Assembly: GCA_045806925.1 (NCBI GenBank)
Contig: JBJMII010000137.1
Coordinates: forward strand, 1-56,983
DNA: 56,983 nucleotides
Reading direction: 5' to 3'
DNA from: Mycobacteriales bacterium
Lineage (GTDB): Bacteria > Actinomycetota > Actinomycetes > Mycobacteriales > CADCTP01
Shown here: piece by piece, positions 52,640 to 54,339 of the stretch
Layout of the letters: the number at the start of each line of letters is the position of its first letter
Numbering within the stretch: position 1 is the first letter of the stretch
The notes under the pieces: model-generated
Database searches by the model: none
What the model was told of the DNA's origin: nothing
What the model saw: the letters and a program-made list of their open reading frames with translations, nothing else
Made by a program: the position numbers and the translations under genes

Positions 52640-52661
52640 TGTCGGACCGCCCCGCTAGCGT
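52640..52661 (+). promoter_or_regulatory. PafBC-type (RecA-NDp) DNA-damage promoter
   Basis: TGTCGG-ACCGCCCCGC(N10)-TAGCGT, exact match to TGTCGG-N10-TA-N3-T. Confidence 0.8.
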
Positions 52662-52684
52662 TCGCCGGGACGAAGGGAGGCGGG

Positions 52685-52795
52685 ATGCGGGGTCGGCGGT
52701 CCGGGGGACTGGGCGTGCGGGGCTGGCTGCTGCTGATCGTGCTGGCGATCATCGTGCTCGGCATGCTCAGCGGGTTGCTGGACCGGGCGACGTGA
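52685..52795 (+). CDS. 36-aa single-TM microprotein, not in the ORF track
   Basis: [48 protein letters not shown] overlaps the ligase GTG (GTGA). Confidence 0.65.
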
Positions 52796-54339
52796 CCGGG
52801 CTGCTGCTGCGCGAGGTGGCGGTGGCCTCCGCGGAGGTGGCCGCGACGCCGGCCCGGCTCGGCAAGGTGGCGCGGCTGGCGGCCGTGCTGGCCGGGGCCC
52901 AGCCGGACGAGGTGGCCGCGGCGGTGGCGTTCCTGTCCGGCGAGCTGCGGCAGCGGCAGATCGGGGTCGGCTGGGCGTCGCTGCGGGAGGTGCCCCCGCC
53001 GGCGACGGAGGCCTCGCTGCGGGTGGCGGAGGTGGACGCGATCTTCGAGCGGGTCGGCCGGCAGGCGGGTGCCGGCTCGCAGGCCGCCCGGCGGGACCTG
53101 CTCGGTGCGCTGTTCGCCAGGGCGACGGAGGTCGAGCAGCGCTTCCTGCGGCAGCTGCTGGTGGGCGAGCTGCGGCAGGGCGCGCTGGAGGGGGTGATGA
53201 CCGACGCGGTGGCCCGGGCGGCCGGGCTGCCGGCCCGGGACGTGCGCCGGGCGGTGATGCTCCGCGGCGATCTCGGCGCGGTCGCCGCGGCGGCGCTGTC
53301 CGGCGGAGCCGAGGCGGTGGCCGCGTTCCGGCTCCAGGTGGGCCGGCCGGTGCTGCCGATGCTCGCGCAGACCGCGGAGAGCGTCGGCGCCGCGCTGGAG
53401 CGGGTGCACCCGGCCGCGGTGGAGTGGAAGCTGGACGGCGCCCGGGTCCAGGTGCACCGGTCCGGCGACCAGGTGGCCGTCTTCACCCGCAGCCTGGACG
53501 ACATCACCGCCCGGGTGCCGGAGGTGGTGCAGGTGGCCCGGGCGCTGCCGGTGTCGGCGGCGGTGCTCGACGGCGAGGTGATCGCACTGGCACCGGACGG
53601 GCGGCCCCGGCCGTTCCAGGTGACCGCGAGCCGGGTGGGCAGCCGGGGCGACCCGCCGGCGCTGCGGGCGGCGACCCCGCTGTCGGTCTTCCTGTTCGAC
53701 CTGCTGCACCTGGACGGGCGGGACCTGCTGGACAGCCCCGGGCGGGAGCGGGCCGAGGCGCTGGCGGCGGTGCTGCCGGCGGCGCACCGGGTGCCGCGCG
53801 CAGTGGTGGACGCCGAGCCGGCCGCGGCGGAGGTGCTGGCCGAGGCGCTCGCCCGCGGGCACGAGGGCGTGCTGGTGAAGTCGCTCGAGACGGCGTACGA
53901 GGCGGGTCGCCGCGGCGCCGGCTGGCTCAAGGTCAAGCCGCGGCACACGCTCGACCTGGTGGTCCTGGCGGTGGAGCGGGGGCACGGCCGGCGCCGCGGC
54001 TGGCTGTCCAACCTGCACCTCGGGGCACGGGACCCGGCGACCGGCGGGTTCGTGATGCTGGGCAAGACCTTCAAGGGGCTCACCGACGCGATGCTCGCCT
54101 GGCAGACCGAGCGGCTCGGCGCCCTCGCGGCCGGCGACGACGGCTGGGTGGTGACGGTCCGGCCGGAGCTGGTGGTGGAGGTCGCCTTCGACGGTGTGCA
54201 GACCAGCCCGCGCTACCCCGGCGGGGTGGCGCTGCGCTTCGCCCGGGTGCTGCGCTACCGGGAGGACAAGACCCCCGTGGAAGCCGACACGATCGATACC
54301 ATCCGTGCCATCCACACCGGAAGCATGCCCCCTAGCTGA
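52792..54339 (+). CDS. ligB: ATP-dependent DNA ligase, LigB type
   Basis: N-terminal DNA-binding domain, PMLA, EWKLDG adenylation motif, LDGE, FDLL, EGVLVK, WLKVK, GKTFKG, ALRFARV. Confidence 0.92.

Follow-up and report, generated by a model that had tools for sequence, protein, structure and literature searches.

What is a reading frame of 36 codons doing between a promoter of the DNA-damage type and the gene of a DNA ligase? The question is raised by contig JBJMII010000137.1 (Mycobacteriales bacterium, assembly GCA_045806925.1), whose 56,983 nucleotides (nt) were analysed here and are referred to as the window. The window belongs to a 3.96-Mb assembly of 222 contigs (G000; 79.9% complete, 74.7% GC) of an organism known solely from soil metagenomes. 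An earlier note on this DNA had pointed to an exact TGTCGG-N10-TAGCGT promoter and to an open reading frame (ORF) of 36 codons, preceded by a strong ribosome-binding site, upstream of ligB, and all three were found in place when positions 52640–52795 were read. The interpretation that we favour, with a probability of roughly 0.4, is that the ORF encodes a damage-induced microprotein, the first cistron coupled to ligB, which would act in the membrane, a brake on division or envelope growth being the foremost, though doubtful, candidate for its role. The promoter type, the control of ligB by PafBC, damage-induced small membrane proteins and translational coupling are all known already; what is new is a microprotein family without annotation whose gene, apparently coupled to an otherwise leaderless ligB, has been placed as first cistron behind the PafBC-type promoter of the latter.

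The microprotein gene and its junction with ligB

The elements of the locus are arranged as follows:

52640–52661, forward strand: PafBC-type (RecA-NDp) promoter TGTCGGACCGCCCCGCTAGCGT, read in the sequence, exact consensus with intact GTC
52668–52669, forward strand: predicted transcription start, giving a leader of 16–17 nt, placed from the usual start distance at motif sites
52672–52680, forward strand: Shine-Dalgarno (SD) sequence GAAGGGAGG, 4 nt ahead of the ATG at 52685, pairing energy −14.7 kcal/mol
52685–52795, forward strand: microprotein gene of 36 codons, ATG at 52685, TGA at 52793–52795, recognized from the ORF, its homologues and its substitution pattern (dN/dS)
52792–52795, forward strand: GTGA junction in which the ligB GTG overlaps the microprotein TGA, read in the sequence
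52792–54339, forward strand: ligB, ATP-dependent DNA ligase of 515 amino acids (aa), identified by Pfam, NCBIfam and orthologues

We consider it very likely that the small ORF is a real, translated gene. Homologous ORFs are found in four further genomes and in one metagenome locus, L083, and in all six loci for which there is DNA the small ORF is preceded by an SD sequence with a pairing energy of −10.8 to −14.7 kcal/mol, SD strength being calculated here as pairing to a generic anti-SD. GC content at the three codon positions is 0.72/0.50/0.94 for the small ORF versus 0.83/0.53/0.97 for ligB; a coding-like distribution of this kind is seen at six of six loci, with third-position values (GC3) of 0.91–1.00 for the small ORF. 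Between the window's genome and its nearest relative, G008, there are nine synonymous and four non-synonymous changes (ratio of non-synonymous to synonymous substitution rates, dN/dS, 0.18; binomial p 0.007), and the pair G013 and G015 from a second genus gave a dN/dS of 0.30 (p 0.026). Together with the position of the peptide gene directly upstream of ligB in six of six DNA contexts (five genomes and L083), these values bear out the conservation and synteny for which the earlier note had proposed to look. A search of 5.8 billion protein clusters (E ≤ 0.01) returned 29 homologous proteins of 25–63 aa, those with a name all being called ‘hypothetical protein’ and two being labelled Mycobacteriales bacterium. 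Over 24 sequences there is no variation at R12, L15, G26, L28 and L31 and hardly any at G13 and L17; what is conserved comprises an RG(W/K)L motif, a GxxxG/S helix face, the length and the charge polarity. No longer, fused forms of the peptide were seen among 8000 candidates, which is weak evidence.

The basic N-terminus and single transmembrane helix that the earlier note had ascribed to the peptide were recovered as four Arg residues on the N-terminal side, with no acidic residue before residue 14, and a predicted helix over residues 14–32 (mean Kyte-Doolittle hydropathy of these 19 residues 2.82) that is followed by a tail of 4 residues. The orientation of membrane proteins commonly follows the positive-inside rule. 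Because its N-terminal side is rich in Arg and free of acidic residues, the microprotein is predicted to span the membrane once with the N-terminus inside and the C-terminus outside. Within the helix, G26 and G30 form a GxxxG motif, which is replaced by G-x-x-x-S in the second genus.

The identity of the downstream gene is clear. LigB contains the domains DNA_ligase_A_N, DNA_ligase_A_M and DNA_ligase_A_C (PF04675, PF01068, PF04679), and its score on the NCBIfam equivalog NF002868 is 812.5 bits, against a cut-off of 641. Alignment of its N-terminus to 27 other orthologues gave a common first position, for which the GTG at 52792 is the sole fitting start. The overlap of this GTG with the TGA of the small ORF is thus as the earlier note had it; G008, G006 and L083 share the GTGA arrangement, and G013 and G015 have TGA-N7-GTG. 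Also as claimed there, ligB is devoid of an SD sequence of its own (best upstream pairing −4.4 kcal/mol), and the combination of an SD-less ligB with a stop/start junction is kept at all six loci with the peptide: upstream pairing of ligB ranges from −4.4 to −5.8 kcal/mol versus the −10.8 to −14.7 kcal/mol of the small ORF. Termination-reinitiation at 4-nt NTGA overlaps is textbook translational coupling. Judging from these signals, translation of ligB is probably coupled in substantial part to that of the microprotein.

On the minus strand at 52050–52490, divergent from the ligB promoter, lies a gene with an HATPase_c_2 domain (anti-sigma-factor-kinase-like), a neighbour that is kept in several genomes of the same genus with the small ORF present or absent.

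The promoter, its regulon and PafBC

The promoter is composed of a −26 element, TGTCGG (52640–52645), a 10-nt spacer and the −10 hexamer TAGCGT (52656–52661). The in vivo consensus of PafBC, derived from chromatin immunoprecipitation, is tGTCgg(N10)tA(N3)T, in which conservation of the GTC is strict (PMC8635444), and PafBC promoters have a −10-like 3’ half without a −35 element (PMC8635444; PMC6789036). Pattern TGTCGG-N10-TANNNT is present twice in the window versus 0.06 occurrences expected, a count of two being reached in none of 100 shuffles, and 29 times in the whole assembly versus 1–7 times in ten mononucleotide shuffles. No sigma-70-type −35/−10 pair was found within 52400–54600, no terminator in the region around the promoter and ligB, and no Rfam element within 52300–53000. 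At 18 of the 29 motif sites in the assembly a long ORF begins 6–7 nt past the −10 hexamer, a leaderless arrangement; since these sites fix the usual distance from the −10 hexamer to the start, transcription of the locus would begin at 52668/52669. We regard it as likely, on the strength of the sequence, that the promoter of the small ORF and ligB is of the PafBC type and induced by damage.

The company that the motif keeps was assessed by applying Pfam to 26 downstream products, namely 25 from other contigs and that of the second site in the window. Among them are the repair proteins PolA (5’-3’ exonuclease), RadA, DnaE, NAD-dependent LigA, UvrA and the methyladenine glycosylase Tag, furthermore five DUF222 proteins, of which three also carry HNH, as well as a PDZ-Lon_C protease, a DinB_2/mycothiol transferase and two glyoxalase/bleomycin-resistance proteins. 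Products not obviously related to repair include two enoyl-CoA hydratases, two ABC ATPases, a major facilitator superfamily (MFS) transporter, an acyl-CoA synthetase, a TldD-like peptidase, an amino-acid kinase and a tRNA_SAD protein, and three products are without any Pfam family. The motif marks a DNA-repair regulon in this genome and matches the published consensus, in agreement with its designation as the RecA-NDp motif of PafBC in the earlier note.

Leaderless genes at exact PafBC motifs on three contigs (C19:5090, minus strand; C147:1246, plus strand; C95:2585, minus strand) include those for a membrane PDZ-Lon_C protease, a mycothiol S-transferase/DinB_2 protein and a glyoxalase-family protein and are candidate non-repair members of the regulon. 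The second exact motif of the window (TGTCGGTG...TAGCGT; 10013–10034, plus strand) lies 6 nt ahead of the leaderless ATG of ORF 10041–11360. This ORF probably represents a degenerate copy of those DUF222/HNH genes that stand behind the motif on contigs C51, C186 and C161, because its DUF222 match covers only profile positions 7–240 of 306, the HNH part is lacking and the C-terminal third resembles out-of-frame sequence.

That ligB can respond to PafBC is documented for mycobacteria. We take MSMEG_2277 to be the mycobacterial ligB. Its log2 induction in the wild type was 3.25 with ciprofloxacin and 2.62 with ultraviolet light (UV), compared with 0.25 and −0.08, respectively, in a pafBC deletion strain (PMC8682763, Table S1). 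Rv3062 is listed in the M. tuberculosis counterpart of that table (PMC8682763, Table S4), and Rv3062 is LigB (PMC11198749). PafBC dependence and damage induction of the window's locus would then follow the same pattern.

The check for pafB and pafC that the earlier note had called for, with their absence from the genome named as a refutation, is formally failed by this assembly. Models for PafA, HTH_PafC and WYL detected no pafA, pafB or pafC in the 79.9%-complete assembly, nor did the PafA, PafB and PafC proteins of G008 used as queries. In G008 the gene order is pafA-pafB-pafC-tatA-tatC, and tatC of the window's genome begins at base 119 of contig C146, so its paf genes would fall beyond the contig end; moreover, pafA is present in nine of nine same-genus genomes searched. 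We therefore read the missing pafBC as an assembly gap, which falls short of proof of their presence. Three WYL matches in the assembly were rejected as PafBC, as all are Helicase_C_3-WYL proteins. These paralogues of about 535–590 aa, with a C-terminal WYL domain, are located on contigs C155, C186 and C9 (L031–L033); one adjoins a ResIII/Helicase_C_3 helicase gene, and that at C186:24556–24768 is about 1.7 kb from the PafBC motif at C186:22803.

Distribution and history of the microprotein

So far as the searches reach, the peptide family occurs within a single family of uncultured soil Mycobacteriales and nowhere else. The homologous ORFs directly upstream of ligB belong to G008 and G006 of the same genus (83% and 46% identity to the window peptide) and to G013 and G015 of a second genus, in which the peptide has 44 aa (36% identity each). 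In 5 of the 16 genomes of the family, a profile built from the five sequences returned a single strong match each (E 5e-20 to 3e-16), in every case adjoining ligB on its upstream side; the remaining seven matches within these 16 had E values of at least 0.004. In the order-wide search with this profile (401 genomes including the family, 19 candidates scored per genome), no convincing match to the peptide was obtained in the 385 other genomes; four matches outside the family with E values of 1.4e-4 to 3.7e-4 lie in frames of 299–549 aa and were taken as chance transmembrane matches. A search of genome contigs with a narrower alignment returned one locus, from a metagenome-assembled genome of an uncultured Actinomycetota. 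The metagenome contig L083 carries the whole architecture (cGTCGG-N10-TAGCGT, SD sequence, GTG start and GTGA junction). Another metagenome locus, L084, was rejected as a copy of the peptide, being the signal peptide of an unrelated protein. Four of the 21 soil sequencing runs with the locus yielded only short DNA contigs with a few variants, which match database homologues.

Promoter architectures were compared across 27 orthologous ligB loci, leaving out two partial loci and the unpublished genome G022, with the relaxed motif nGTC[AG]-N11-nAnnnT. At 19 of the 27 loci across the order the motif lies in front of either the small ORF or ligB. At 16 loci it starts 19–26 nt ahead of the aligned first ligB codon and ligB is therefore leaderless; this group includes seven genomes of the window's own genus, with TAGCTT-N7-ATG or similar, and the congener G005 is alike. 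In the window's genome, G008 and G006 the motif is about 150–165 nt upstream of ligB, with the SD sequence and small ORF in between. The second genus has the order motif, gene of 203 aa, small ORF with its own SD sequence, and ligB seven bases past the stop. The 203-aa gene (in G013 at L039 1669–2280, minus strand; in G015 at L012) belongs to no Pfam family and is unmatched both in the window's genome and at the other ligB loci retrieved.

In the LigB tree (30 rows, with G022 as one outgroup row, midpoint-rooted), which is a gene tree and not a species tree, the family forms one clade (support 98/96), as does genus 1 (100/97). The peptide is distributed over genus 2 and one genus-1 subclade, G006, (G008, (G000, G002)), with support 94/91, of which G002, the sister of the window's genome on this tree, contains neither the small ORF nor the PafBC motif. 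Most simply, the gene would have been gained once, ahead of the split of the two genera, and lost several times afterwards, with independent transfer as the alternative. About 60 nt upstream of ligB in G002 (L003) there is a purine-rich, SD-like run, and a GTG is found in frame into ligB. G002 might be thought to have lost the small ORF by a clean in-frame deletion, but the alignment shows the whole intergenic region rearranged and the motif lost, so that this remains a suggestion.

Two further observations concern other parts of the window. A short tandem repeat at about 55690–55770, between an isochorismate-synthase-like gene (54475–55683) and a Transgly_assoc gene (55841–56161, minus strand), reads PGGWPV several times on the plus strand and GTGQPP several times on the minus strand. 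At about 9300–9420 on the minus strand, ORF 7939–10266, an apparent acyl-CoA synthetase judging from its translation, contains a Gly-Ser-Ala run (GSAGSAGSA...) near its N-terminus.

Possible roles of the microprotein and comparison with known systems

According to the interpretation that we favour, transcription would start near 52668/52669 after DNA damage and yield a short-leadered mRNA, on which ribosomes would load at the SD sequence of the small ORF, translate the microprotein, terminate at its TGA and initiate anew at the GTG that overlaps it. ligB would thereby have lost independent initiation, LigB output would follow translation of the microprotein, and a single damage-induced transcript would deliver peptide and ligase together. 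Insertion of the microprotein into the membrane would be post-translational, because a 4-residue tail leaves the helix in the exit tunnel at termination; tethering of the mRNA or of the ligase via co-translational insertion would consequently be unlikely. Once inserted, the microprotein may pack its helix against another membrane protein. Action within the membrane is most plausible because the molecule has a basic cytoplasmic part of about 12 residues, its helix bears a small-x-x-x-small face, and hardly anything of it lies outside. By analogy, it may represent a damage-induced checkpoint of division or envelope growth, a role that we consider possible yet doubtful. The narrower idea, that PafBC controls a checkpoint peptide which corresponds to DidA in actinobacteria and is hard-wired to the ligase by coupling, at a ratio set by reinitiation, seems rather unlikely.

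Several points weigh against a coupled, damage-induced membrane effector. The constant linkage to ligB is left unexplained by a checkpoint role. Only 5 of the 16 family genomes possess the peptide, which on the LigB tree appears to have been lost several times, including in G002, and is therefore dispensable. In genus 2, TGTCGG-N10-TAGCGT precedes the 203-aa gene and not the small ORF directly, and the paf genes are missing from the assembly. All 21 sequencing runs with the locus are soil DNA metagenomes, with no RNA run among them. Distant pairs of the small ORF gave dN/dS values of 0.56–1.24, which are uninformative at such length and GC content, and no named family was found for the microprotein in Pfam, NCBIfam or the ESM Atlas, where the best scores of 0.77–0.79 all belong to unnamed clusters.

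Other explanations have to be set beside the one preferred here. The linkage itself would be accounted for if the microprotein were a specific partner of LigB that anchors or regulates the ligase at the membrane, with coupling providing fixed proportion and proximity: the small ORF directly precedes ligB in all six contexts, by overlap or 7-nt junction, and this linkage is kept in genus 2 despite the promoter being further upstream. Tight coupling of neighbouring cistrons often accompanies physical association of their products. Yet LigB does without the peptide in 11 of the 16 family genomes and in all other sampled families, its N-terminus and domain set are the same with and without it, the cytoplasmic part on offer for binding comprises only about 12 Arg-rich residues, and co-translational tethering to the mRNA would be unlikely with the helix still inside the ribosome at termination. 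Complex prediction for LigB and the microprotein with two alignments gave no support and permits no verdict. On balance, we view a dedicated LigB partner as unlikely. Another proposal, which the earlier note had listed as well, reduces the small ORF to a translational leader whose strong SD sequence loads ribosomes that are passed on to ligB, the peptide being functionless. The absence of an SD sequence from ligB and its presence at the small ORF at six of six loci, the evolutionary dispensability of the ORF and the situation in G002, where apparently the same SD sequence and start codon run straight into ligB, are all in line with it. What disfavours a pure leader is that the amino-acid sequence is conserved: the invariant R, G and three L residues, length, charge polarity and GxxxG/S face persist over 24 sequences and two genera, there is a synonymous excess in close pairs, and a simpler leaderless solution is available and used by relatives. 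We thus find a mere leader improbable.

The microprotein also bears a resemblance to membrane-active toxins of the TisB/DinQ kind, and it could be a damage-induced protein that lowers the membrane potential and slows growth during repair. Its small size, single hydrophobic helix, possibly self-associating GxxxG face and damage-type promoter would suit such a function. TisB/DinQ-type toxins are, however, restrained by antisense RNAs and poor translation signals. Here the SD sequence is strong and the leader short, no Rfam element is present at 52300–53000, a repair enzyme would rely on translation of the ORF, and similarity to toxin families is lacking in Pfam and NCBIfam. A toxin thus seems to us as improbable as a bare leader. 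The most skeptical view, that the ORF is not a gene at all but a chance open frame in GC-rich intergenic DNA, can invoke the frequency with which DNA of 74.7% GC gives rise to long spurious frames and the absence of RNA runs from those with the locus. It is nevertheless nearly excluded and close to refuted, given a GC3 of 0.94 (0.91–1.00 over the six loci), a strong SD sequence at each of them, protein conservation over two genera and the 29 database sequences, and the synonymous excess.

If the microprotein does act as a PafBC-controlled checkpoint, the PafBC response would gain its first assigned small membrane effector, and one mRNA would both arrest division or envelope growth and supply the nick-sealing enzyme. 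The known targets of the PafBC response are repair enzymes, and the microprotein is a concrete candidate effector with testable motifs (RGW, GxxxG). In the literature outside the 2018 Cell Reports regulon tables, no PafBC-controlled small membrane protein appeared among the matches listed. The locus also offers a natural experiment within one genus, with the same promoter and ligase being either leaderless or separated by an inserted, apparently coupled microprotein. Its reach is limited by the narrowness of the peptide family, which is known solely from uncultured soil bacteria.

The closest functional parallels are found in Caulobacter crescentus, where division is inhibited after damage by two single-pass proteins of the inner membrane, SidA (29 aa) and DidA (71 aa) (PMC4211646), both damage-induced, that bind the divisome membrane proteins FtsW/I/N and hold the complex inactive (PMC4211646; PMC9186387); DidA is activated by the WYL-domain activator DriD (PMC4211646). 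The microprotein likewise is tiny, with one transmembrane helix predicted and a damage-type promoter, and DriD is a WYL activator like PafBC. Unlike SidA and DidA, it would be the first cistron coupled to a ligase, and it comes from another phylum and is linked to another regulator. No Pfam or NCBIfam link connects the microprotein with named families, the SidA and DidA sequences themselves not having been compared, and for this reason the parallel is one by analogy only; the lacking sequence relationship is irrelevant to function, because such inhibitors are not one homologous family. A further group consists of YneA, SosA and ChiZ of Gram-positive bacteria, which are SOS-induced, LexA-controlled and have sizeable extracellular parts. 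The microprotein, with its 4-residue outer tail and PafBC-type promoter, differs from them in both respects. All three are damage-induced, membrane-anchored inhibitors of late divisome proteins (PMC13712929; PMC13396833). According to PMC13712929, ChiZ is not required for the damage-induced block of division in M. smegmatis, and the mycobacterial damage-induced division inhibitor is still unidentified.

With regard to the promoter, the locus shares the GTC-bearing motif and the absence of a −35 element with mycobacterial PafBC promoters, including that of ligB, but is set apart from the PafBC-type ligB promoters of its relatives, leaderless at 16 of 27 loci, by the ribosome-binding site and 36-codon gene that intervene here. 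The junction has its counterpart in NTGA-coupled gene pairs, in which, as here, the upstream stop overlaps the downstream start and the downstream gene is without an SD sequence. What distinguishes it from typical pairs of this kind is that the upstream microprotein was apparently added to, and repeatedly removed from, an otherwise leaderless gene.

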